Positions 994 through 51,810 of a DNA stretch of 64,000 bases are shown here, piece by piece. Position numbers and translations under genes: made by a program. Every line of letters begins with the position of its first letter. The first letter of the stretch is position 1. The notes beneath the pieces were generated by a model that saw nothing but the letters and a program-made list of their open reading frames with translations, searched no databases and was not told where the DNA came from. The stretch is from Thermoplasmatota archaeon (GTDB lineage: Archaea; Thermoplasmatota; Penumbrarchaeia; Penumbrarchaeales; EX4484-36): assembly GCA_029932465.1 (NCBI GenBank), contig JAOZQA010000001.1:2953-66952 (forward strand). The letters run 5' to 3'.

Positions 994-1866
994 ATGACAT
1001 CCAAAGAGGAACAGAGGGAAAGGCTCGCCCAGCTCGTTCAGATGAGGAGGGAAGAGGAGGAGCTGGCTGAGAACCTGAAGGGTGTAGACCATCTCATAGC
1101 CGTCATGAGCGGAAAAGGCGGTGTGGGCAAGAGCACCGTGGCCGTCTTCTTAGGCTACTTCCTCAGCAGAAGAGGCTACAGGGTGGGGATCCTGGATGCA
1201 GATCTGCACGGTCCCGATGTCCCCCTCATGTTGGGAGTTGAGGGTGAGAGGCTCTCTGTGACAGGCAGCGGCAAGATCCTCCCATACCCCGCCTTGGAGA
1301 ACCTGGATGTGGTCTCAATGAGCTTTATGCTTGAAAGAAGCGACCAGGCGATAATATGGAGGGGCCCTTTGAAGATGAAGGCCATCCGTCAGCTCCTTAA
1401 GGATGTTGATTGGGGTAGGAGGGACTTTTTGATCATAGACCTGCCCCCGGGGACCGGGGATGAGCCTCTCTCCATTGCACAGCTTCTTCCCCGAAGGGAC
1501 GGCGCTGTGGTCGTCACAACTCCCCAGGAGGTCTCCCTGCTGGACGCCAGGAAGGCCATATCGTTCTCCAGGGAACTCAAATTTCCCGTCCTGGGGCTCA
1601 TAGAGAACATGTCCGGTTTCGTCTGCCCCCACTGTGGAAAGATAACCTACATCTTCAAAAGGGGAGGGGGTGAGAGGGTGGCGCAGGAGATGGATGTGCC
1701 ATTTCTGGGGAGGATACCGATGAACCCCAAAGTGGTAGAAGCGGGTGATGGCGGCATCCAGAAGGTTTTGAGTGAGGGCGGGGAGGAGATGGAGAAGCTC
1801 TTTGGGGGTATAGTGGAGAGGCTGCTTGAGGTGGTCAGCGGATCTCAAGCCCCATCTGGGCAATGA
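994..1866 (+). CDS. mrp: Mrp/ApbC/NBP35 family Fe-S cluster carrier ATPase
   Basis: [38 protein letters not shown]. Probable start ATG 994 (ORF track starts at 934). Confidence 0.9.
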
Positions 1867-2668
1867 TACTGGCCGCCCTTCTCACAAGTTCCTTGGATCT
1901 GCCGGTGGAATGAGTGTAGCACACAGCCGCCCCGGGGGTCCTCTTCACCATCTCTTCTATCACCTCTGGAGAGGAGATGGCCTCCTGAAGGGCGTACTCG
2001 GGGAGCATGTGCCCGAAGGCTACAGCTCTTTTCAGGGCGATATCTGTGAATCTGGGGGCGTAGTGGCCCCCGCCCACCCCAACGGCCACTTCAACCCCCT
2101 CCGGCTCTCTGTAGGTGCCGGGGAAGGTCTCAAGAAGAGCCCCGGCTATGGCCTCAGCAGCGTCCTCCCTCCTCCACATCACCTCGTCCGAGCCGATCTC
2201 CATGAAGAAGTGGGGGGTTCTGATAAGTGGCCCGTGGTGGGTCACCTCGTAGGAAACCCTGTGCTCAAGACCCAACTTCTCCGCCCATCTCCTTAAGGAT
2301 CGTAGAGTCTCCCTCATGGGAAGGGGTGCTGAGGTGGAGAGGGCCCTGCACCTCCCTCCGTAGAGGGCCTCGCTGAAGTTTCCGGTGGGGTGCAGGGTGA
2401 GGGTGGGTATGCGGGAGGCGGAGCTGTGGCGGGAGAGGATCACAAGAAGTGGGTAACCCCCGGGGTTGTGCACCTCAAAGAGGGCGTCCAGGTCCTCTCT
2501 GTAGAGGTGCTCTCCCTTAAGGGTGATAAGCCCCACCTCGCCCGAGGTGTAGGAGGGGTTCCCCTCCACCTCCCCCACCCTCTCCCACCTACCCATCTGA
2601 AGAAGCCTCTCCCGAATGTTCATGGAGGCTATATCGCCCTCAAAGGCCATGAAAAGCAATTCCACCAC
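1835..2668 (-). CDS. dtdA: Archaeal D-aminoacyl-tRNA deacylase (DTD2 type)
   Basis: [44 protein letters not shown] motifs. Confidence 0.85.
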
Positions 2669-4024: not shown

Positions 4025-5629
4025 ATGAACTTCTCACTCAACCCGCAGGAGGACATATTCCTCATCTTCTCCGTAATTCTGCTCATAGCCTTTGTCATCC
4101 CGGAGTTCTTCAGCAGGCTGAAGGTGGCCTACATCCCCTTCTACATCTTCGCGGGCATGCTCATAGGCCCCCACGGTTTTCTCAAGATAGAGGTCACAGA
4201 GCCCCTTCAGTTCGTAGGCGATCTGGGACTCCTTCTTCTGGTCTTCCTTGCGGGGCTTGAGATACACGCCATGGTGGAGAGGTCCCTAAGGAGTTCTCTT
4301 CTGATGTCCATGATCTTCGGGGCTGTCTGCTTTGCAGGCGGTTATCTCCTCGGTCTTCTCTTCGGACAGCCTCCCGTCACGAACTTCCTTCTCGGAGCAG
4401 TCCTTATGTCCTCTTCCGTTGCGGAGATCGTCTCCATAGTGAACTCCGCCCCTGCCCTCAAAAAGAGCTACGGGCACGTAATCGTGCCCGCCATTGTGAT
4501 ACTTGACACATCGAGCCTGGTGCTTCTGGGAATTATGCTGAAGTATAAAACTGCCCCGGGGGAGCTTTATCTATTCTTCGTTGAGATCACGCTCTTTCTC
4601 CTTTTGGTCTTCTACCTGATTCCCCATCTTGTGAAGAGGTACTTCCAGAGGAGGACCCGCAAGCCCCGGGAGAGCGACATGAAGTTCGTCTTCCTGACCC
4701 TAATTGCGGTGGTGGCTCTCTCAGAGCTCATAGGACTGCACGGCATAGTCGCCGCCTTCATAGTCGGTGTGGCCCTTGGAGAGTTCATACCCCGGGGGCC
4801 CCTTTACGAGAAACTTCACGGGTTGGGTCACGGTCTCTTGATCCCTGTCTTCTTCATAGTACTCGGCATGTCCCTTGACACCACCATACTGATAGAGGGG
4901 CACACCTCCCTTCTCTTTCTCATATCCTTGATAGTTACTCTGGTGTGCGTTAAGGTTGCATCTGGGGTTATTTATTCGAAAATGAAAAAGGGAGGTGTGA
5001 GGGATGGGGTTATCCTGGGGGTGACCTTCTGGCCGCAGATGAGCGCAACACTTGCAGCGGCCTCCATAGGCTACAGATACGGCATTTTTAATGAGACCGT
5101 ACTTCTGGCGATAGTCTTCATGTCAATCTTCTCCATCATGACCTCTCCCTTCGCCGTCAGATATCTCACCCGGGATAGAACGACCTCGGTGCTTCAGCAG
5201 AACCACACGGTGGTGGTGGGTTACGGGAGGACGTCGTCGAAGATAGTCACCATTCTTGATTTCGCGGGAAAGGATGTTGCGGTGATCGAGAAGGACCTCA
5301 ACAAGGTGAGACGCCTTGAGGAGAGGGGCATTCGCGTGATATACGGCAGTGGTACAGACCAGGAGGCTTTAAGGAAAGCAGGCATCTCCGGGGCGAAGGT
5401 AGCCCTGATTACTATACCTGACGAGCACGAGGTCTATCTGACGGCGAGGTACATAAGGGAGCTTAATCCGGACTGTTACACCATCGCCAAGATCCACACC
5501 GAGAAGCTGCTTAAGAGGCTTAAAAAGGAGGGTCTGGTGGACTCCATCATATGGCCTGAGAAGATGAGCAGCCTGGAGGCGACAAGGAAGGTCTTTGAGC
5601 ACCTGGAAGGGTTTTATCCAGAGTTCTAG
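4025..5629 (+). CDS. CPA2 (Kef-type) cation:proton antiporter with C-terminal RCK/TrkA-N domain
   Basis: About 12 hydrophobic segments, LLLLVFLAGLE, AFIVG, FFIVLG; C-terminal VVVGYGR..IEKD..YGSGTD..L..AGI. Confidence 0.85.
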   Translation: MNFSLNPQEDIFLIFSVILLIAFVIPEFFSRLKVAYIPFYIFAGMLIGPHGFLKIEVTEPLQFVGDLGLLLLVFLAGLEIHAMVERSLRSSLLMSMIFGAVCFAGGYLLGLLFGQPPVTNFLLGAVLMSSSVAEIVSIVNSAPALKKSYGHVIVPAIVILDTSSLVLLGIMLKYKTAPGELYLFFVEITLFLLLVFYLIPHLVKRYFQRRTRKPRESDMKFVFLTLIAVVALSELIGLHGIVAAFIVGVALGEFIPRGPLYEKLHGLGHGLLIPVFFIVLGMSLDTTILIEGHTSLLFLISLIVTLVCVKVASGVIYSKMKKGGVRDGVILGVTFWPQMSATLAAASIGYRYGIFNETVLLAIVFMSIFSIMTSPFAVRYLTRDRTTSVLQQNHTVVVGYGRTSSKIVTILDFAGKDVAVIEKDLNKVRRLEERGIRVIYGSGTDQEALRKAGISGAKVALITIPDEHEVYLTARYIRELNPDCYTIAKIHTEKLLKRLKKEGLVDSIIWPEKMSSLEATRKVFEHLEGFYPEF

Positions 5630-5880
5630 AGGTCATCCTCCTCAAAGAAGAAGTCTATCCCCGCCTCTCTGAGGAGGTCCTCGATGAAGACCACCATGCT
5701 ATCATCCTCCTCAACCCCTTCCAGAAAGCCCAGTTCCTGAAGTGGAGGGAGGTCAGGGGTGGATGCCAGATAGCGCGAGATCTCCTCTGGCAGTCTTGAC
5801 CTGGCCTCTCTGATGTTCACGGCCGGGATGAAGATGACAACCTCCCCCGACCGGTAGCAGTACATCTTTTCTGTTTCCAC
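5626..5880 (-). CDS. Small acidic hypothetical protein
   Basis: 84-aa ORF directly downstream of leuS on the same strand, overlapping the antiporter stop by 4 nt; no recognised motif. Confidence 0.5.
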   Translation of the reverse strand: METEKMYCYRSGEVVIFIPAVNIREARSRLPEEISRYLASTPDLPPLQELGFLEGVEEDDSMVVFIEDLLREAGIDFFFEEDDL

Positions 5881-5928
5881 GCTGATACCTCTGCCATCAA
5901 AATATAACTATTTTTCTGTAACCCCCTT

Positions 5929-8811
5929 TCATTCCACGTATACGGCTGGCTTGAGGGGTAAAGCCAGGTGTGCCCTTCCCCGGGGGTCGTATTTTGAGGG
6001 GTCATCCTCCTCGTAGACTGAGACCTCGGCCCCCAGCTCTCTGGAGAGAAAGGGAATGCTCCTCCTCAGGAAATCCTTCTCATCCCTGAAGCTGAGGTAC
6101 CTCTGCCGGTCCTCCTCCTTCATCCTCATGACATCCTTGGCCAATCTGCTTATAATCTGGGGGACCACCTTCTTTTTGTCCTTTAATTCCTCTTTCTCCA
6201 AGAACTCCTTTATTACCCTCCCGGGGTCCACCCGCCCCTTCTCCTCCCTCATCCGCATCAGCCTCTCAAGCGCCTCCCACTTCCACCCGGGGGCTGTGTA
6301 GAGGACGATCCGCTCCCCCTCCCTCCCCGTGGCTCTCCTTATGTGGGAGATGTCCTCGAGGAGTCCTTTTAGGTACTCCTCCCTGGCCAGCACTCCCTGG
6401 TCGTAGGCCTCCACCTCACCGGTCTGCGAGAGGGAGACCAGCCCCTCTCCCCCAGCCATCTCCCACAGCTCCTCAGCAAGGTGGGGGGTGAAGGGCATCA
6501 TCATCTTCGCCCAGGTGCGCACGGCCTCCTTGAAGGCCTCCCCGCCCCCGCCACCCCTTCTCAGATACCATCTTAAATCCTGATACGTCTGGTAATAGAC
6601 GGTCCCGGCGGCCTCCCTTAAGGCGTAGTTCTCCATGGCATCCAGGTACTCCGAGAACCTCTTAGCTAAAGCGGCCCTCAGGTAGTCGTCCATCTCCCCC
6701 CCCTCCCCCCCGCCAGATATAATCTCTCTCACCAGGTTGAGTATTTTAAGGAGCCTGCTCTGGTAGTCGCTTACCACCTCCTCCCTCCACTCCACATCCA
6801 TCTCCGGGGAGCCCACGTGGCAGTAGTAGAGCCTCATGGAGTCAACGCCGTAGTGGGCGATGGCCTCTGGTATGGGCTCTGCCCCACCCTTGCTCTTGGC
6901 GATCTTCTCACCGCCCTTCTGGGTCACCCACCAGTGGACGAAGATTCCCCGGGGCCATGCCCATTTAGGCATTATGGCAACGTGGTTCATGAGAAAGACG
7001 GGGAAGTGTACCGTTTTGTGCTCCTTCCCCCCCAGGTTTATATCTAGCGGATACCAGTAGAGGAAATCTCTTCTTATTTTCTCAATAACCCCCCTCCTCT
7101 CCTCCGGAAAATCACTTATCTCCCCTCTTCCAAGATAGACGTAGTCAAAGAACCTCTCATCCATCCACTCCACCTTAAGTTCACCGGAGTTCACATACTT
7201 TGAAACGATGTAGTAGGCGGGGTAGAGGGTTGAATCCGATATCGGCTCAATGATCCATCCCTTTGCGAAGGGAAACTCCGTTCCAAGCCAGGAGCCCTGG
7301 CGTATGCACGCCCTGTCAGAGAACCATTCCAGCACCCCGGGGAGCTCTCTCTTGTACTCCTCTGGATATATCATCATCCTCTCGGTGTGCTCCACTGACC
7401 TCTCGGTGAGCTCCTCGTCCGAATACCTTATGAACCACTGGTTCTCAATCCTCTTGATCACAACCCTCTCCCCGCAGCGACATATAACCTCCTTTGAAAA
7501 GTCGTAGAAGGGCCTGATGAGCCCGATGTTTTCCAGGTCCACTTTCAGGGTGTCTTTGATCTCGGAGACCTTAAGCCCTGCATAGTCCATACAGAGGTCG
7601 TTCAGCACTCCAGAGTGGAACTCCTCCCTGTAGATCTCCCGGGTGGCCTCCTCCAGCTTCTCCACCTCGAACTGGTCCTTCACCCCCATGCTCTTTACAA
7701 GATGACCTGCTGGATCCTCCATGGGGTACTTGCGGCTCTTTATGATGGTTATGGGCATAATCCCCTCCACCACGCTCTTAAGTCCCCATGGGTCCTCCCC
7801 CTCTCTCAGCTCCCCCTTAAGGTCCTCAAGGGCTATCCAGTCGTAGGGGGCGTGGGCGGGAACGGACATGACCACCCCCGTGGCCACCTTCGGGTCCACG
7901 AAGGGTCCAGGAAGTATAGGCACCTCCCTGTTGGTATAGGGCACCCGGCAGCTCTTCCCTATGAGCTCGGAGCCCTTTATCTTTCCCACTTCTTCAACAT
8001 CACCCATCTGATAGCTGAGTTTGACGTAGCCCTCCCGGGAGAGAAGCCACCCTCTTCCATCCACCTCCGCCACCACGTACTCCACATCCGGGTTCAGCCA
8101 CATGTTGGTCACGCCGAAGAGGGTCTCAGGCCGCAGCGTTGCGGCGGGGAGGATGAGCTGCTGCGGCCCCTCGAAGAGGAGGAGTGAGTACTCCAGGACA
8201 TCGGCGTCTCCCCCCTCGGAGACGTCGGTCTGGGAGGGGTCCACCGCAACCGGCCCGCAGTTTGGGCAGTAGGGGGCGTAGTGGGGCTTTTTTGTGAGAA
8301 GCCCCTTCTGGTTCAGCTTCAGGAACTGCCAGGTTATGAAGCGCTTGTACCCCGGGGATACTGTGGACATCGCCCGGGAGAGGTCTATTGTGAAGCCGAA
8401 CCTCTTCCAGTAGTCGTTTATGTACACCTTTGAGAAGAAATCAATGAGGTAGCTAACGTCCTTGAGCTTCTCAATCTCCTCCTCCGGGCAGCCGTTTCTT
8501 TTCAGATATTCTATTGTGGAGGGGTCCCCTCTCTGAATCCTCTTCGCCAGCGATATGGCTGGCAGGCCAGAGGCGTGAAATCCCACGGGAAAGAGGACGC
8601 TGTAGCCCCTCTGCCTCTTGTAGCGACAGATCACGTCAGCGTATGTGAAGCCCCTCATGTGGCCCACGTGGAGGTAGCCAGAAATTCCAGGGTAGGCGAA
8701 GATGAGAAAGAACTTCTCCCGCGTCTCATCTCTCTCCGCCTCCCACCTCACCTTCTCCTCCCATATCCTCTGCCATTTCCTTTCGATGTCAACGAGCACG
8801 TTCTCGGCCAT
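5929..8811 (-). CDS. leuS: Leucine--tRNA ligase, archaeal type
   Basis: YPGISGYLHVGH (HIGH), CP1 editing TLRPET and GVVMSVPAHAPYD, GKEHKTVH, KIAKS (KMSKS variant), C-terminal KPAVYVE. Confidence 0.97.
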   Translation of the reverse strand: MAENVLVDIERKWQRIWEEKVRWEAERDETREKFFLIFAYPGISGYLHVGHMRGFTYADVICRYKRQRGYSVLFPVGFHASGLPAISLAKRIQRGDPSTIEYLKRNGCPEEEIEKLKDVSYLIDFFSKVYINDYWKRFGFTIDLSRAMSTVSPGYKRFITWQFLKLNQKGLLTKKPHYAPYCPNCGPVAVDPSQTDVSEGGDADVLEYSLLLFEGPQQLILPAATLRPETLFGVTNMWLNPDVEYVVAEVDGRGWLLSREGYVKLSYQMGDVEEVGKIKGSELIGKSCRVPYTNREVPILPGPFVDPKVATGVVMSVPAHAPYDWIALEDLKGELREGEDPWGLKSVVEGIMPITIIKSRKYPMEDPAGHLVKSMGVKDQFEVEKLEEATREIYREEFHSGVLNDLCMDYAGLKVSEIKDTLKVDLENIGLIRPFYDFSKEVICRCGERVVIKRIENQWFIRYSDEELTERSVEHTERMMIYPEEYKRELPGVLEWFSDRACIRQGSWLGTEFPFAKGWIIEPISDSTLYPAYYIVSKYVNSGELKVEWMDERFFDYVYLGRGEISDFPEERRGVIEKIRRDFLYWYPLDINLGGKEHKTVHFPVFLMNHVAIMPKWAWPRGIFVHWWVTQKGGEKIAKSKGGAEPIPEAIAHYGVDSMRLYYCHVGSPEMDVEWREEVVSDYQSRLLKILNLVREIISGGGEGGEMDDYLRAALAKRFSEYLDAMENYALREAAGTVYYQTYQDLRWYLRRGGGGGEAFKEAVRTWAKMMMPFTPHLAEELWEMAGGEGLVSLSQTGEVEAYDQGVLAREEYLKGLLEDISHIRRATGREGERIVLYTAPGWKWEALERLMRMREEKGRVDPGRVIKEFLEKEELKDKKKVVPQIISRLAKDVMRMKEEDRQRYLSFRDEKDFLRRSIPFLSRELGAEVSVYEEDDPSKYDPRGRAHLALPLKPAVYVE

Positions 8812-21607: not shown

Positions 21608-22320
21608 ACCTTACCCACCACCCTCAGAAACAGCTCTTCAACGTTCTGAGAGTCGTTCCTTTCAAGGAGGTCTTCAACATCAGCCGGTCCCTCCACAATC
21701 CTTCCCTCCTTTATTATGGCTATTCTCTGGCAAACCTCCTCCGCCAGGGCGGTTATGTGGGTAGATAGAAGCGCCCCCGCCCCATTTTTCACCGCATTCT
21801 TAAGGAGTCTTTTGAAGGTATGGACGTGTCCGGGATCAAGGCCAGAGGTGGGTTCATCTAAAAGCAGAAGGTCCGGTCTGTGCAGCATGGCTATGGCTAT
21901 GGATAATCCTCTTCTCTGCCCCTTGGACAGCTCACCGACGGGGCTTGATAGAGAATCCAGGAGGTCAAAGGCTTTTAGAAGCCGCTGTGATCCTCCCCGG
22001 GGGCCATGCCCTCTCAGGGAATTAACGAGCTCTATAAGCTCCCAACCTGTCAGGTGTTCATAGAAGAGGGGGTCCTCTGGAACATAGCCCACTTTTGCAA
22101 GATACTCTGCTGGGGCCTCCCTGGTATTCTTACCTCTGAACAGAACTTCTCCCCTCTCAGGCCTGAGAAGATGCACCGCAATTCTAAGTGCTGTTGTCTT
22201 CCCAGCACCGTTGGGACCTAAAAGTCCTACGACCTCTCCGCTATCCACCGAAAGTGAGAGGTCTTCAAGCACGGTCTTTGATCCGAAGCTCTTCCAGATC
22301 CCCTTCAGTTCAAACAGCAT
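21604..22320 (-). CDS. ABC transporter ATP-binding protein (exporter type)
   Basis: GPNGAGKTT, LSKGQRR, LLLLDEPTSGLD, LSTH; probable start ATG 22320. Confidence 0.9.
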   Translation of the reverse strand: MLFELKGIWKSFGSKTVLEDLSLSVDSGEVVGLLGPNGAGKTTALRIAVHLLRPERGEVLFRGKNTREAPAEYLAKVGYVPEDPLFYEHLTGWELIELVNSLRGHGPRGGSQRLLKAFDLLDSLSSPVGELSKGQRRGLSIAIAMLHRPDLLLLDEPTSGLDPGHVHTFKRLLKNAVKNGAGALLSTHITALAEEVCQRIAIIKEGRIVEGPADVEDLLERNDSQNVEELFLRVVGKV

Positions 22321-22405
22321 CAGGATAGATAACCGAAGAGGATAAGAAAAAACTTTCCTTGACATTTTATAGCGATAAAAATCACCCTCTGCCCAGGAAA
22401 CGCAC

Positions 22406-22462
22406 AAGACCTACGGTTCAAATCCCGGTCGTTGTAGAGAGTTGCTGGGACAATAATGTAAG
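22406..22462 (-). repeat. tRNA-Glu 3' trailer element containing antisense T-arm
   Basis: 22415-22428 ggttcaaatcccgg is the exact reverse complement of 22471-22484 in the tRNA; flanks resemble the tRNA-Val trailer. Confidence 0.75.
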
Positions 22463-22535
22463 TGCTCCCGCCGGGATTTGAACCCGGGTCGCAGGCTCGA
22501 AAGGCCCGCATGATTGGCCGCTACACTACGGGAGC
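22463..22535 (-). tRNA. tRNA-Glu(TTC), CCA not encoded
   Basis: Reverse complement GCTCCCG...CGGGC-CTTTCGA-GCCTG...CCGGG-TTCAAAT-CCCGG-CGGGAGC-A. Confidence 0.96.
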
Positions 22536-22632
22536 GTTGCCGCTGGAAGATGCGAAATTTAATCTTTTATTTAAAGGTATTCCGCTTCGAAAACTGGTAA
22601 ATTATTTATCCGAAGAGGGGATTTCCCCCCCC

Positions 22633-22875
22633 ATGTGGAGAACATACCTGGTGGTCTGGTTCAGCAGCGAAGGGGCAAAGCCCTCAGAGGTCACCCAGCG
22701 CCTGTTAAACATGGGATTCAAACCTACGAAGGGGCAGTATGATTACGTATACGAATGGAGCGACAAGACAGACATTGAGGACATATTGAAAATCGGCGAT
22801 AAGGTTCAGAATACGTTGAAGGGCATGGGTGTTCTCTACAAACTGGAGACTTTCGCTCCCATGGATTATGAGTGA
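22633..22875 (+). CDS. Conserved small archaeal hypothetical protein (80 aa)
   Basis: MWRTYLVVWFSSEGAKPSEV..RL..MGF....G.YDYVY.W..LYKLET resembles a small family I associate with Thermoplasmata; true start ATG 22633, since the longer ORF runs antisense through tRNA-Glu. Confidence 0.7.
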   Translation: MWRTYLVVWFSSEGAKPSEVTQRLLNMGFKPTKGQYDYVYEWSDKTDIEDILKIGDKVQNTLKGMGVLYKLETFAPMDYE

Positions 22876-22922
22876 CCTCGAAAGAGGCCTCTTATTACAA
22901 CTTTTAAATAAAAAAATGCAAT

Positions 22923-23349: not shown

Positions 23350-24045
23350 TTAAATAGCCGGTGCGATTCGGAAGCCTCCATCCCTGAACTCCAGAGCGAA
23401 CCATGATGTGTTGTGGTTCATCGCCCTGAGCTTTATACATCTTATCTGTCTCTGGAGGTCGCTTGTTCCGATGGGTTTTAGGGCGGTCTGAAGAATTCCA
23501 TCCGCCAGGAAATCCTCGTCGCCGAATGGAGAGGTTATGGAGGGTTTCTCGTTGACAAGTATCGTGGTTAGCTGTAAGCTCTTGAGCCAGGAGAAAAGAT
23601 GGAAGAGATATTCCCTGCGGTTCTTGAAGTAGGATAGAATCTCAAGCACGGGGAGGGAATCGATTACCAGAATCTCTGGGAGATGCTCTTCTACCAGGCT
23701 TTCAACGTAGCCTCTGAAACCCTTGTCCCAGCTCTTCGGCTCTACCCCGGAGAGGGCTTGACGGATCTTCCCAAGGTCCGCTATGTGGAGCTCGCTCAGA
23801 GCGCTGTCCCTTATGTCATATCCCATCCTCCCCATCTGAAGAAGGAGGGAATCTCTGGATTGCTCAAGCAGGGTGTAGATGGCCCCCATGCCCTCCCTGG
23901 AACTGTGATAGACTATATTGAAGGCCAGGGATGACTTGTAAGTCCCCGGGGTACCGCTGATTAATATTATATGGCCCTTTGGAATGCCACCACCCAGCTC
24001 CCGGTCAAGGTTTTTAACATATGTGGATATCAGCTCCATGTCCAT
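23350..24045 (-). CDS. Single-domain KaiC/RAD55-family ATPase
   Basis: LDRELGGGIPKG, SGTPGTYKS, LEQS, ILVIDSL, ADGIL, RCIKLR. Confidence 0.85.
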   Translation of the reverse strand: MDMELISTYVKNLDRELGGGIPKGHIILISGTPGTYKSSLAFNIVYHSSREGMGAIYTLLEQSRDSLLLQMGRMGYDIRDSALSELHIADLGKIRQALSGVEPKSWDKGFRGYVESLVEEHLPEILVIDSLPVLEILSYFKNRREYLFHLFSWLKSLQLTTILVNEKPSITSPFGDEDFLADGILQTALKPIGTSDLQRQIRCIKLRAMNHNTSWFALEFRDGGFRIAPAI

Positions 24046-34682: not shown

Positions 34683-34756
34683 GGGCCCGTGGTCTAGCTG
34701 GTTATGACGTCGCCCTCACACGGCGGAGGTCGCCGGTTCGAACCCGGCCGGGCCCA
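34683..34756 (+). tRNA. tRNA-Val(CAC), CCA not encoded
   Basis: GGGCCCG...TCGCC-CTCACAC-GGCGG-AGGTC-GCCGG-TTCGAAC-CCGGC-CGGGCCC-A followed by CCT. Confidence 0.96.
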
Positions 34757-34980
34757 CCTTTAATAATTTTGTGGTCAGCGGATATTAACGTGGCCGGGTT
34801 CGAACCGAAGGTCTTCCGCACTTGCAGAGAAAAGGAATTAACGAAGGAAGTGCGGAGGCAAGGTGAAAACGGTCTAAAGAGGATGAAATGAGGAGTTTTC
34901 ACCGTGTCGAACCCGGCCGGGCCCACCTTTAATAATTTTGTGGTCAGCGGATATTAACGTGGCCGGGTTCGAACCGAAGG
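34738..34980 (+). repeat. Perfect 74-bp direct repeat (tRNA-Val 3' end + trailer) flanking a 95-bp insert
   Basis: 34738-34811 and 34907-34980 read identically base by base; the repeat starts inside the T-loop. Confidence 0.92.
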
Positions 34981-35071
34981 GCCCGGGTGTTTTCTGAGAG
35001 GTCTATCTACGGACAAAAAGTTACGGGTCAAAGGTTGCTTTTTTATCTGTCCTCTTATTCTTGGTATAAAT

Positions 35072-39819: not shown

Positions 39820-40512
39820 TTGAAGACTATGTTTTTGGACACCCTTGAAGGTCTAAGCAGAATATTCAGAGGAGACATAAAGCCCCCGAAAGTCATTCTG
39901 GTTACGGGCCCTCCCGGATCTCTCAAATCCTCCTTTGTATACATGCTCTTCTCAAAGTACTTGAAGAACCGTGATGAGGTGGGGCTTTACTGTACCCTGG
40001 AGGAGTCCGTTGCCTCGCATCTTACAAACATGGAGAGTCTGGGAGTGGAGCTAATATATAACATGCAGATCATTGACTTCTCGTCCCTGAGGAGGGAAGA
40101 GGAGGAGATGGACTATCTGGAATTCCTCAAAAAAAGCCTGGTGAGGTTCAAGGAGAAATACGGAGAACATTTTACACTCTTCGCCCTGGACTCCTTAGGC
40201 GCCCTCTATTCCATCATGGAGGATGACACGAACCTCAGGAGGAGGATGTATCACTTCTTTCAGTTCCTGAGGGAGCTTAATCTCTTCTCCTTCCTCATCA
40301 TGGAGAGGGACCCAGACAGCCCGTCACAGTTTCTGGGAAATGAATCCTATCTCTCCGACGGCATAATCTATTTGGGGATGAAGAACCGGAAGGGCCAGAT
40401 CATAAGATTCATCCAGATCGAGAAGATGCGTACTGTGGAGCACAGTATGGCTCCCCACGCGATCACCGTTAGAAAAGGAGACATCTCCATACTAGGAGAA
40501 ATCCTTGACTGA
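39820..40512 (+). CDS. Single-domain KaiC/RAD55-family ATPase
   Basis: TGPPGSLKS, TLEES, FALDSL, SDGII, IQIEKMR. Confidence 0.85.
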   Translation: MKTMFLDTLEGLSRIFRGDIKPPKVILVTGPPGSLKSSFVYMLFSKYLKNRDEVGLYCTLEESVASHLTNMESLGVELIYNMQIIDFSSLRREEEEMDYLEFLKKSLVRFKEKYGEHFTLFALDSLGALYSIMEDDTNLRRRMYHFFQFLRELNLFSFLIMERDPDSPSQFLGNESYLSDGIIYLGMKNRKGQIIRFIQIEKMRTVEHSMAPHAITVRKGDISILGEILD

Positions 40513-46439: not shown

Positions 46440-47093
46440 TCAGCATATACCTTTTAAGTAGCCCAGCGCTCCCATAAGATGGTATTTTCCCTCCCCGCTG
46501 CACCAGCTACCGTGGCCCGGGTAGAGGCTTCTGAAGTCCTCTTCGATCAAGGATTTCAAGGAGCTACAAAGTAGTCTCAGGTCGCCCCCGGGGAGGTCCC
46601 ACCGCCCTACCCACCCGCCACAGAAAAGCAGGTCACCTGAGAAGAGTGCTCCTTCCTCCTCATATATATACACGGTCGAGCCCGGGGAGTGCCCAGGGGT
46701 GTGAATGGTCTTGAGGGAAAGGCCCCCCGGGAGGTGCAGTGTGCCTTCTTGAAAGGTCTTAATCTCCTGAGGGGGTCTGAACACCTCCCCGAAAAGCCAT
46801 CCTCCAATGTAAGTGTCATCTCCCTGGGCGAGTGTATCCCGAGCTACTCTATGCGCAAAGACAGGGCAATTGAACCTCTCCTGTAGTGCACGAGCGGCCC
46901 CAGCGTGGTCAATGTGCTCGTGGGTAAGCAAGATGCACTGGAGGTCTTGGGTGTGCCTCTCAATCCTTCTGATGAGCTCCCCCCCTCTAGAGGGGAGGGA
47001 AGTGTCTATAAGATACCAGTTATCAGAGTGGTTGATCAGATAGGAAGCACACCCTATGGAGTCATCCCCACACTGGATAACCTTGAAGGGCAT
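46440..47093 (-). CDS. Metallo-beta-lactamase fold hydrolase (glyoxalase II-like)
   Basis: THEHIDH, HTPGHSPG, FSGD, YPGHG. Confidence 0.87.
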   Translation of the reverse strand: MPFKVIQCGDDSIGCASYLINHSDNWYLIDTSLPSRGGELIRRIERHTQDLQCILLTHEHIDHAGAARALQERFNCPVFAHRVARDTLAQGDDTYIGGWLFGEVFRPPQEIKTFQEGTLHLPGGLSLKTIHTPGHSPGSTVYIYEEEGALFSGDLLFCGGWVGRWDLPGGDLRLLCSSLKSLIEEDFRSLYPGHGSWCSGEGKYHLMGALGYLKGIC

Positions 47094-47142
47094 GATACAC
47101 TCAATCATTTATATGCTTAAACGTTTACCCTTCCGCATGCAC

Positions 47143-48618
47143 ATGTTGGGGGAGAAACATCGGAAGGTCAGGGAGGAGGTGCTAAGGAGGGTTAAACCCA
47201 CCCCCGAAGAGGACAGGCGGATTGAAGAAGTGGTCCAGGAGTTGATGGAAAGAATAGAAAGAGCGAAGGAGCTACTCCAGCTATCCTGGGAGATCAGAGC
47301 GGAGCTTGTGGGGTCCATCGCTAAGGGCACTCACCTGAAAGACCCCGACATAGATATCTTCCTCCTCTTTCCCCGGGGGGTGGGTGTTGAGACGCTACAC
47401 ACGGTAGGACTGAAGCTATGCCTGGAAGTCCTCCCCCAGGGCCAGAAGCTCTACACCCAGCATCCCTACATACACGGCGAATTCATGGGATTTGAGGTCG
47501 ACCTTGTGCCCTGTTTTGAGATGAAGAAGGGGGAGGAGATAGGGAGCATGGTGGATAGAACCCCTCTTCACACAAGATTTGTGAAGGAGCACCTGGATGA
47601 AAGTGGAAAGGACGAGGTGAGGTTGCTTAAGGCATTTCTCAAAGGAATAAAGGCTTACGGGGCTGAGGAGGCGGTAAAGGGAATGTCCGGCTATCTAGCT
47701 GAGCTCTTCATTATAAAATTCAGCAATTTTGAGAAGACCCTCCAGGAGCTCTCCCGAATACGTCCTCACACGAAACTGACCCTCGGCGGCCGGGAGGCAG
47801 CAGTCGCTGTAAGAAGAAAGTACACCGATGATGACCCCCTGATCTTCATTGACCCTGTGGACCCCAGTAGAAACGTTGCATCCGCACTTTCTGCAGAGAA
47901 CCTCCTCTACGTAAAGAAGGCAGCTTGCTGTTATCTCAGAGCTCCTTCGTTAAGTTTCTTCTTTCCCCGGAGAATCAGCGAAATAGACGGAGCTAAAGAT
48001 ATCGTATGGGAAAAGGTGCAGGCTATTCTCGGCAGCGGGGGCGGGATCCTTCTTTTAACAGTAGACCTCCCCCCCGTTCAGGCGGACATCTACACTTCTC
48101 AGACCAGAAGATTCCTTAAGAGGGCTGTTGAGACCTTTGAACGTGAGGGCTTCAGGAAAATAAAAAGCGGGTTTTACATCTACTCGCCCCCCCGTGTGGG
48201 CCCCTTTCCAGCTCCCAGAATAAAGGAGCACATAGAATCTGAGAGAGTAGAACTTGTAATGCTGTTCATATTCCCTCAGTACAGAAAAGGTGAGCGAAAA
48301 CTCCACCTGGGGCCTCCGGTTCATGTGAAGGCTAGAGCGGAGGACTTCAGAAGGAAGTGGGAGGGGAGGGAGGAAGCCCTTTCCAGGATATTCATCAGGG
48401 ATGGAAGGTTGGCCCTGTACATCAGACGTAGAATGAGAGAACCTCACCAGATGCTTCCAGTGGTTCTGAAAGCACTTCCCTCACACTTGAAAAAGGCATA
48501 TGAGTCGAGAATCACCATCTCCGTAAACCGGGGTATAGATATCGAAAGGTACTGGGAAGCCCTCTATCTTGCCCTCTCTGGCAGGGAGCTGTGGGAGCTT
48601 GACGAGGATACTGGCTAA
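47143..48618 (+). CDS. cca: Archaeal (class I) CCA-adding enzyme
   Basis: GSIAKGT.L..DIDIF, HPY, VDLVPC, DRTPLH, SGYLAEL, DPVDP.RNVA; start ATG 47137 or 47143. Confidence 0.92.
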   Translation: MLGEKHRKVREEVLRRVKPTPEEDRRIEEVVQELMERIERAKELLQLSWEIRAELVGSIAKGTHLKDPDIDIFLLFPRGVGVETLHTVGLKLCLEVLPQGQKLYTQHPYIHGEFMGFEVDLVPCFEMKKGEEIGSMVDRTPLHTRFVKEHLDESGKDEVRLLKAFLKGIKAYGAEEAVKGMSGYLAELFIIKFSNFEKTLQELSRIRPHTKLTLGGREAAVAVRRKYTDDDPLIFIDPVDPSRNVASALSAENLLYVKKAACCYLRAPSLSFFFPRRISEIDGAKDIVWEKVQAILGSGGGILLLTVDLPPVQADIYTSQTRRFLKRAVETFEREGFRKIKSGFYIYSPPRVGPFPAPRIKEHIESERVELVMLFIFPQYRKGERKLHLGPPVHVKARAEDFRRKWEGREEALSRIFIRDGRLALYIRRRMREPHQMLPVVLKALPSHLKKAYESRITISVNRGIDIERYWEALYLALSGRELWELDEDTG

Positions 48619-51114: not shown

Positions 51115-51810
51115 ATGCTGAGATACTGTTTGGACGGGCTGGAAAACGTGGTTTTCACAGACATTCCCCGGGGATATATAGTCCTCGTCACGGGTCCCCC
51201 TGGTAGTTTCAAGACGGGCATCACGTTCAACATTATGGCCAACTACCTTAAGAATACCGGTGAGTTCGGGGTCTACATGACCCTGGAGGAGAGCACTGAA
51301 TCTCACCTGAGGAACATGGAATCCTTGGGAATCGAGGTGCCGGACAATCTCCTTATAACGGATTACTCCGATATAAGAAAGCGGTTTGAGTCCTCCGAAG
51401 AACACCCGGATTTCCTCGAGATGGTGGACGGGGTGATCAAATACTTCAAGGAGAAAGAGGGTGAGCGTTTTTCCATCTTTGCCCTCGACTCTCTGGGTGC
51501 CCTCTACTCCCTCATATCTACCCAGAACCTCAGGGCCAGAATGTTTCACTTCTTCAAAAAGCTCAGAGATTACAACCTCTATTCCTTCGTCGTTATGGAG
51601 ACCCCAAAATATTCAAACATTGCTGAGGGGGAAGGAGGAGAGTACTTCCTCACAGACGGAATAATCGAACTGGGTATGATCGAGCGTGAGAGGGATGTGA
51701 GGCTTTATCTCCAGGTCCCAAAGCTGAGGGCTGCCTACCATAGCAGGAAGAAGTTCTATATCGATGTTGGAGAGAAGGGTCTGTCCGTGCTCAGCCCTGT
51801 TTATGACTGA
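51115..51810 (+). CDS. Single-domain KaiC/RAD55-family ATPase
   Basis: TGPPGSFKT, TLEES, FALDSL, TDGIIEL, VPKLR. Confidence 0.85.
   Translation: MLRYCLDGLENVVFTDIPRGYIVLVTGPPGSFKTGITFNIMANYLKNTGEFGVYMTLEESTESHLRNMESLGIEVPDNLLITDYSDIRKRFESSEEHPDFLEMVDGVIKYFKEKEGERFSIFALDSLGALYSLISTQNLRARMFHFFKKLRDYNLYSFVVMETPKYSNIAEGEGGEYFLTDGIIELGMIERERDVRLYLQVPKLRAAYHSRKKFYIDVGEKGLSVLSPVYD

Follow-up and report, generated by a model that had tools for sequence, protein, structure and literature searches.

What is an exact antisense copy of a tRNA T-arm doing immediately behind the tRNA gene itself? The question is raised by the window analysed here, a 64,000-nucleotide stretch of a contig from a Thermoplasmatota archaeon, in which Rfam (63.8 bits) and ARAGORN both place a tRNA-Val(CAC) gene at 34683-34756 of the plus strand. 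The segment 34792-34807 (GGCCGGGTTCGAACCG) is the 100% reverse complement of the T-arm of this tRNA at 34734-34749, with 42 nt separating the two arms. A preliminary description of the locus had noted this 16-nt antisense T-arm, and we find it to be real, an exact complement both on reading the sequence and in a repeat search; it begins, as claimed, 35 nt past the discriminator A34756. Allowing for up to two mismatches, the 16-mer occurs four times in the 64-kb window, against 0.03 occurrences expected by chance. Ten of the 16 nucleotides of the arm (GGTTCGAACC) are self-complementary, so that its orientation at tRNA-Val is fixed by six flanking nucleotides alone. This doubt is removed by the tRNA-Glu gene of the window, where a 14-bp inverted repeat (GGTTCAAATCCCGG versus CCGGGATTTGAACC), also with 42 nt between its arms, answers the T-loop TTCAAAT unambiguously with ATTTGAA. 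Exact matches to GAACCGWAGGTCTT in the window are confined to GAACCGAAGGTCTT and GAACCGTAGGTCTT, at the Val and Glu sites, and the proposal that these two sites are members of one element family holds good, with the arm standing at a fixed distance and co-varying with its own T-arm. The window has three real tRNA genes, since a fourth ARAGORN call, a tRNA-Thr(TGT) at 8256-8331, is unsupported by Rfam; this call falls within an ORF (5929-8811, minus strand) for a class-I aminoacyl-tRNA synthetase of 960 aa and is likely to be a false positive. The window further encodes three KaiC-like ATPase paralogues (23350-24045, 39820-40512 and 51115-51810), its other genes being of the housekeeping kind, such as those for GrpE and DnaJ-like chaperones, tRNA synthetases and ribosomal proteins.

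We consider it rather probable that the arm is the tRNA-proximal end of a non-coding cassette of about 169 bp, here termed family A, that was inserted site-specifically and is mobilised in trans. An 82-nt block is present twice on the plus strand, at 34730-34811 (repeat search, family D1) and 34899-34980 (repeat search), with 96% identity and a spacing of 169; it comprises the T-arm from the T-loop, the acceptor 3' strand, a 35-nt trailer and the antisense arm, and the 87 bp between the copies are made up of two hairpins, HP1 and HP2. What had been taken for the native trailer of tRNA-Val belongs instead to an inserted 169-bp cassette, of which it is the end nearest the tRNA; duplicated tRNA 3' ends delimit this cassette, the first copy being attL-like and the second attR-like. 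Within tRNA-Val, the insertion target, the T-arm segment 34734-34749 supplies the 5' strand of a helix, HP0, with the antisense arm (predicted ssDNA fold -23.3 kcal/mol, z -4.4), and the part of the tRNA from about T55 (34738) to the discriminator may itself derive from the cassette. The cassette-borne trailer (34757-34791) has a T-rich box, ATAATTTTGT, and then ATTAACGT directly before the arm; the box (consensus ATTRTTKT) and the ACG are nearly invariant in an alignment, A2, of 21 complete units including that of the window (73% mean identity), and the T-rich trailer is probably the tRNA terminator. The antisense arm, recovered by repeat search and family covariation, pairs with either 34734-34749 (16 bp) or the downstream fragment 34907-34918 (12 bp), and runs into the family signature GAACCGAAGGTCTT with its CC-GWA-GG junction (34802-34815; motif search and A2). 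HP1 follows at 34813-34858 (CTTCCGCACTT / AAGTGCGGAGG, with a 24-nt loop ending in TTAACGAAGG; folding, six compensatory pairs in the family), and then HP2 at 34862-34903 (GGTGAAAAC / GTTTTCACC, with a 24-nt loop; repeat search and folding, three compensatory pairs in the family). Starting inside the T-loop, the second copy takes in the displaced 3' fragment of the tRNA (TCGAACCCGGCCGGGCCCA, 34907-34925) and repeats both the trailer and the antisense arm (the latter at 34961-34976). Such a displaced tRNA 3' fragment is the classic trace of insertion into a tRNA gene. The trailer and arm of this copy, together with a degenerate HP1 5' half, constitute an older, truncated second unit at 34926-35010 (plus strand; nhmmer and alignment A3).

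A profile of the family-A core returns exactly three matches in the window with nhmmer: a full-length one at 34784-34903 on the plus strand (E 2.4e-20, model positions 3-121 of 125), one in the truncated second unit at 34952-35010 (model positions 2-60, E 6.5e-07), and one at 22394-22435 (E 9.6e-10). The last belongs to a solo remnant (22394-22462, minus strand) behind the second target in the window, tRNA-Glu(TTC) (22463-22535, minus strand; Rfam), and this remnant consists of a trailer, an antisense arm (22415-22428), GTAGGTCTT and an HP1 5' half, GTGCGTTTCC, after which host sequence follows. Complete units in locus L066 have exactly this GTGCGTTTCC half, and the apparent trailer of tRNA-Glu would be a decayed cassette remnant. 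The sole ORF of the 169-bp unit, a 74-aa frame on the minus strand (34702-34926), runs antisense across HP2, HP1 and the arm into the tRNA; we rejected a coding reading because conservation tracks nucleotide pairing and similar frames at tRNA-Glu reflect nucleotide conservation only, and the ORF is probably spurious. In the mechanism that we favour, the cassette would carry, in this order, a replacement tRNA 3' end (from about T55 to the discriminator), the trailer, the antisense arm, the CC-GWA-GG junction and the two hairpins, and its insertion in the T-loop would leave the tRNA intact at one flank, with 19 nt of displaced tRNA 3' end at the opposite flank.

Scanning public genomes and metagenomes for the antisense T-loop together with the conserved junction, we recovered a family-A unit of about 165-170 bp behind at least 12 tRNA species, with one, two or three units per array. 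These tRNAs include Glu(CTC), Leu(GAG, TAG, CAG), Pro(TGG), Met, Val(CAC, TAC), Arg(TCG, CCG), Ser(GCT) and others, and the hosts are the Thermoplasmatota MAGs AUK266, BLK5-1.bin.203 and PL23a_bin.128 along with JGI metagenomes; one contig of the species of the window, L309, comes from an ENA hydrothermal vent metagenome record, and the family as a whole belongs to archaea of deep-sea vents. The antisense arm matches the T-loop and T-stem of the local tRNA in every family-A case, and the inverted repeat, whose conservation or covariation in relatives the preliminary description had named as a test, does co-vary with the tRNA across many loci. The NAC protein of the window has its best matches, 43-53% identical, in Methanomassiliicoccales and Thermoplasmata MAGs, and none of the 28 loci with NAC homologues in GTDB has an adjacent tRNA-Val. 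Scans of viral contigs for the cassette returned chance matches only, and in the literature that we searched, including one review, such units are not described. Looser motif scans mostly picked up genuine bacterial tRNAs on the opposite strand (AAGACCATCGGTTCGAATCC). The minus strand of the arm and junction does resemble a tRNA variable loop and T-arm; a minus-strand tRNA-like gene was nevertheless rejected because no acceptor strand follows there. L242, L266 and L269, where no tRNA was detected upstream, match the core weakly and in part, over the arm, the junction and a hairpin resembling HP1. The Ser-type units (L078, L237) have a much longer imperfect fold-back of 11 + 7 + about 11 bp with bulges, which runs from the T-loop over the acceptor strand into the first part of the trailer and resembles a long bulged hairpin.

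Both targets of the window are polymorphic. At tRNA-Val we compared assembled contigs, not reads, that encode an identical NAC protein: five have the full form seen in the window, while L301 and L305 are shorter by exactly 169 bp, lacking one repeat, HP1 and HP2; the truncated second unit remains in this short allele. At tRNA-Glu, assembled contigs with an identical ABC ATPase adjoining the tRNA show the remnant alone in the window and five other contigs, and a complete family-A unit plus other small units between tRNA-Glu and the same remnant in L307 and L314, the inserted stretch in L307 measuring 427 bp. As the repeat copies of L307 differ from the single copy of the short form, this is not simple assembly collapse. 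The 169-bp indel at tRNA-Val, being flanked by the 82-nt repeats, is open to repeat-mediated deletion, and could have arisen by homologous recombination or by an assembler skipping the repeat loop. Seen more generally, the repeats allow for a history with no dedicated mobility, in which the units would be scars of larger viruses or plasmids, or local tandem duplications, that were spread and homogenised by homologous recombination. Direct repeats of 82 nt can indeed give rise to duplications and deletions, truncation is common among distal units, and metagenome assemblies can mis-join repeats. Yet the same core of about 125 nt, its hairpins kept intact by compensatory changes, recurs behind at least 12 tRNAs in several genomes, the unit keeps a constant length of 165-170 bp and has no coding remnants, and a single orthologous site can hold different subtypes, as between L264 and L265 and between the window and L243, the orthologous tRNA-Val/MTAP (methylthioadenosine phosphorylase-like gene) locus of a relative. 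We regard this history as quite improbable.

The arrays are also informative as to where site-specifically inserted cassettes would enter. Clean array ends consist of the 19-nt tRNA fragment followed by sequence without trailer or antisense arm, which is unrelated flank in L078, L236 and L240 and a unit of another family, family B, in L066 and L248. Several arrays end instead in a unit truncated at varying points, as in the window, L218, L261 and L270; such truncated distal units look like products of decay, an interpretation of sequence that other histories would fit too. New units would enter beside the tRNA while older ones decay distally, and the finding of units between the tRNA and an old remnant, along with the distal truncation, implies that arrays grow at the tRNA. 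In L312 (1-2010), the ABC-ATPase flank and Glu remnant corresponding to 22320-22900 of the window are joined to a different upstream context with MutL, a NicX-like gene, tRNA-Gln and tRNA-Glu(CTC), which points either to a chromosomal rearrangement that joined the cassette arrays behind two tRNA-Glu genes or to chimeric assembly at the repeats. In L270, a long CRISPR array (4380-8152, repeat CTTCCACACTATCCAGTGCTTCTGAAAC) directly follows the truncated second cassette behind tRNA-Arg(TCG), and the cassette array appears to be cut by, or to abut, the CRISPR leader; L264, at the same locus, has one degenerate repeat copy (CTTCCACATTATCCAGTGCTTCTGGAAC, about 2560-2660, minus strand) and then an ATPase-like ORF.

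The preliminary description had offered a different account, in which the arm acts in cis as part of a tRNA 3' trailer, competing with the T-arm in read-through precursors and controlling RNase Z or CCA maturation. We folded the tRNA-Val precursor with its trailer, as it had suggested, and the lowest-energy prediction does replace the T-arm by the 16-bp helix; moreover, the arm is retained in every Val and Glu allele seen, including the short ones. To this extent the proposed competition stands as an in-silico swap, but it leaves unexplained the internal copies of the arm, which follow tRNA fragments incapable of maturation, the inclusion of the arm in an inserted, repeated and polymorphic unit, and its absence at cassette-free tRNAs, among them Gln and Asn at related loci and Pro-GGG in the window, which was correctly said to be without it. 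Many transcripts may also stop before reaching the arm, because a T-rich tract separates it from the tRNA. The suggested correlation with tRNA genes lacking an encoded CCA fails: the trailers start with C or CC, family B supplies a full CCA, and the window encodes a CCA-adding enzyme (47056-48618). As a primary explanation the ideas on tRNA processing and CCA are unsupported, and a role of the arm as a cis-acting trailer seems to us very unlikely.

Selection appears to act on the fold of the cassette. In alignment A2, HP0 (T-arm with antisense arm), HP1 and HP2 are 92.4% paired, as against 52% or less for slid partners; compensatory changes are seen at 14 pairs, and in 500 shuffles the observed covariation score was never attained. 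From unit to unit, T-stem pairs may be C-G, G-C or A-U, and the loop pairs of the arm change in step with TTCAAAT, TTCGAAT and TTCGAAC. An alternative closing helix, P1, between the arm and the next downstream tRNA fragment is 97% paired and is predicted to close a three-way junction around HP1 and HP2 (fold z -3.7). Whether folded as RNA or as DNA, HP1 and HP2 outperform shuffled controls. Judging from this covariation in sequence, the hairpin structure is under selection. The minus strand folds equally well, and the wobble counts (six G.U versus nine A.C) do not identify the folded strand. Read on the tRNA-sense strand, the mismatches comprise 45 purine-purine versus five pyrimidine-pyrimidine ones; one HP1 subtype carries G.A/A.G pairs in tandem, and a small hairpin with a triloop could arise at the invariant CC-GWA-GG junction. 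Together these features favour the tRNA-sense strand as the one that would fold. Readings as an H/ACA RNA, C/D RNA, K-turn, hammerhead or bulge-helix-bulge were discarded, the defining boxes or bulges being absent in the sequence.

A fold of this kind raises the possibility that the unit is chiefly an RNA, transcribed by read-through from the tRNA promoter or from a conserved A/T-rich box about 24 nt upstream of the arm, in which the arm pairs with the downstream tRNA fragment in a three-way junction enclosing HP1 and HP2 and serves as a guide for an RNA-dependent recombinase (bridge-RNA-like) or as a tRNA regulator. The z of the three-way-junction fold, the covariation backing all the helices, the conservation of the ATTRTTKT box and ACG(T/A) at a fixed distance from the arm, the tracking of the target tRNA by the arm across at least 12 tRNA species and the purine-purine mismatch bias towards the tRNA-sense strand would all suit such an RNA. 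Against it, units of the Glu, Arg and window-Val types show only a weak TATA-like box, and no protein partner came to light; the other strand folds just as well, and Rfam 15 has no family match for the region even at E up to 10, only the tRNAs passing and every other match falling far short of the threshold. We hold this reading to be doubtful.

For the cassette mobilised in trans, the agent would be a site-specific recombinase, and by analogy with the folded DNA of attC and CTX-phage attP, the fold-back with HP1 and HP2 would be recognised in single-stranded form, either as folded DNA or as RNA, possibly a guide. The recombination or guide site probably includes this fold-back. We infer a single-stranded state because palindromes that bind proteins would conserve sequence and not co-vary; a classical double-strand tyrosine-recombinase reaction offers no ground for hairpins that co-vary, and the single-strand or RNA step is thus purely hypothetical. 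No recombinase Pfam domain was detected in the 30 window ORFs scanned, and no integrase stood out among the listed ORFs near other arrays, which were read by eye. A larger carrier element was also sought beside L202, L113 and ten other arrays, and only host genes were encountered.

The distribution of the parts indicates that the cassettes are modular. The HP1-HP2 core is shuffled relative to the tRNA module, the same core occurring with Pro, Met, Val, Glu and Leu modules and a single tRNA module occurring with different cores, which would require an extra exchange step at the conserved junction and so counts against the favoured reading. In the hybrid array of L254 the arm matches the upstream and not the foreign downstream fragment, and thus fragment, trailer and arm form one module. 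This array, behind tRNA-Met, carries the fragment of another tRNA (TCAAATCCCGCCCGGTCCA, about 1160-1190, minus strand), and in the second units of L264 and L270 the fragment of an Arg isoacceptor lies behind tRNA-Arg(TCG). Hybrid arrays of this type imply insertion at non-cognate copies via the shared T-loop. The antisense segment matches both target and donor; guide-RNA-directed recombination of the IS110 bridge-RNA type involves an element-encoded RNA with loops complementary to the two, together with a cognate recombinase. One may tentatively envisage a new class of miniature mobile elements whose target is set by base-pairing, wherein the arm, as RNA or folded ssDNA, would pair with the T-arm sequence common to the tRNA gene and the cassette fragment and thereby present the crossover to a trans-acting recombinase. 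With arm and fragment exchanged, an unaltered hairpin core would be redirected to a different tRNA, and this would yield the pattern found for 12 or more tRNAs.

Family A shares its arrays with no fewer than two further families of small non-coding units. Units of family B, about 160 nt long, were found in L066 (2287-2448), L248 (about 7440-7900), L261 (153-320), L244 and L307 (1600-1850); a GTDB scan for the right end of this family gave L066 as the only real match. In their first hairpin (CCAAATTAC...GTAATTTGG) an antisense segment is paired to the acceptor end of the tRNA and an encoded CCA, two CGTCAAT motifs are the reverse complement of ATTGACG/ATTAACG in the family-A loops, and a terminal hairpin (CTCCCTCAC) directly precedes a tRNA fragment of about 15 nt, which in some copies is that of a different tRNA. 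As family B folds likewise, the families have in common a design in which the unit folds back on a portion of the duplicated tRNA segment. A hairpin unit of about 75 nt (CGCAGAGTTCAC...GTGGACTCTGCG), bounded by tRNA-Met 3' fragments, lies distal to two family-A units in L240 (about 6440-6530, minus strand).

If mobile, these cassettes would be among the smallest site-specific integrative elements known to us, reduced to a replacement tRNA end and structured DNA or RNA, in archaea with poorly known mobile elements. Their mobility would explain the puzzling tRNA fragments and hypervariable spacers behind the tRNA genes of vent Thermoplasmatota, and chromosome rearrangements between tRNA loci may start from them. 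The combination of a target-matched arm and a shared core suggests a modular, possibly pairing-based choice of integration site; if this is true, the switching of tRNA targets by integrative elements becomes directly testable. For annotation, it should be borne in mind that what looks like a "trailer" or a partial tRNA in these genomes is part of a cassette.

Among known systems, MITEs, palindromic elements derived from IS200/IS605 and casposons at tRNA 3' ends are similarly small, non-coding or tRNA-linked, and hairpin-rich. Unlike MITEs or other DDE-transposon derivatives, the cassette, with its ends taken at the att copies, has neither terminal inverted repeats nor a short target duplication, and what is directly repeated is tRNA sequence, over 19 to 82 nt; its sole inverted repeat is that between tRNA fragment and arm, which as termini would need a duplication of more than 40 nt. 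IS200/IS605 elements make no target duplication, and casposons have a Cas1 gene, terminal inverted repeats and 14-15 bp of tRNA 3' end in duplicate. Family A has no ORFs, no terminal repeats and a duplication of at least 19 nt; family B has a duplication of about 15 nt as in casposons, yet without terminal repeats. No Cas1 or TnpA gene was found near the cassettes.

The integron attC site and the CTX-phage attP act through single-strand fold-back, the attC R-box consensus being RYYYAAC...GTTRRRY. As in attC, structure is conserved above sequence in the cassettes, with an imperfect fold-back kept by compensatory change, an inverted repeat that folds on one strand and arrays that grow proximally; the T-loop GTT and the AAC of the antisense arm recall integron R boxes. 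Integrons do occur in archaea (PMC9668308). Unlike integron cassettes, those described here deviate from the R-box consensus, GTTCAAA and TTTGAAC fitting GTTRRRY and RYYYAAC at five of seven positions each, come with no visible IntI, target the tRNA T-loop and carry a tRNA 3' end and trailer as sole cargo.

The closest parallels lie with elements that integrate at att sites. Like CIMEs and IMEX elements, the cassette is devoid of its own recombinase, bounded by att copies and prone to tandem accretion at the same site. The CIMEs of streptococci and IMEX are bacterial, kilobases long and usually gene-bearing, with no conserved fold-back, in contrast to the archaeal, gene-less cassette of 169 bp with a conserved one. 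The IMEX elements are non-autonomous, att-flanked and Xer-exploiting (PMC5704250). Islands and proviruses that target tRNA genes have been described with tyrosine integrases, as archaeal SSV-type and pTN3/TKV-type elements, and with Islander-type attL/attR (PMC5495485, PMC8371274, PMC4383910). Like them, the cassette restores the tRNA, leaves a tRNA 3' fragment from the T-loop as a mark of its far end, integrates in tandem and is possibly linked to rearrangement between tRNA loci (L312). Their signature of an intact tRNA at one end and the displaced 3' fragment as a direct repeat at the other is found here, as are alleles differing by the insert (169 bp at Val and 427 bp at Glu, in assembled contigs and not reads). 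Unlike them, it measures a mere 169 bp, has neither genes nor an integrase, and consists almost entirely of co-varying hairpins and an antisense copy of the target T-arm. Overall, its behaviour fits that of tRNA-targeting integrative elements and non-autonomous att-flanked elements, and its structural logic, by analogy, resembles that of attC.
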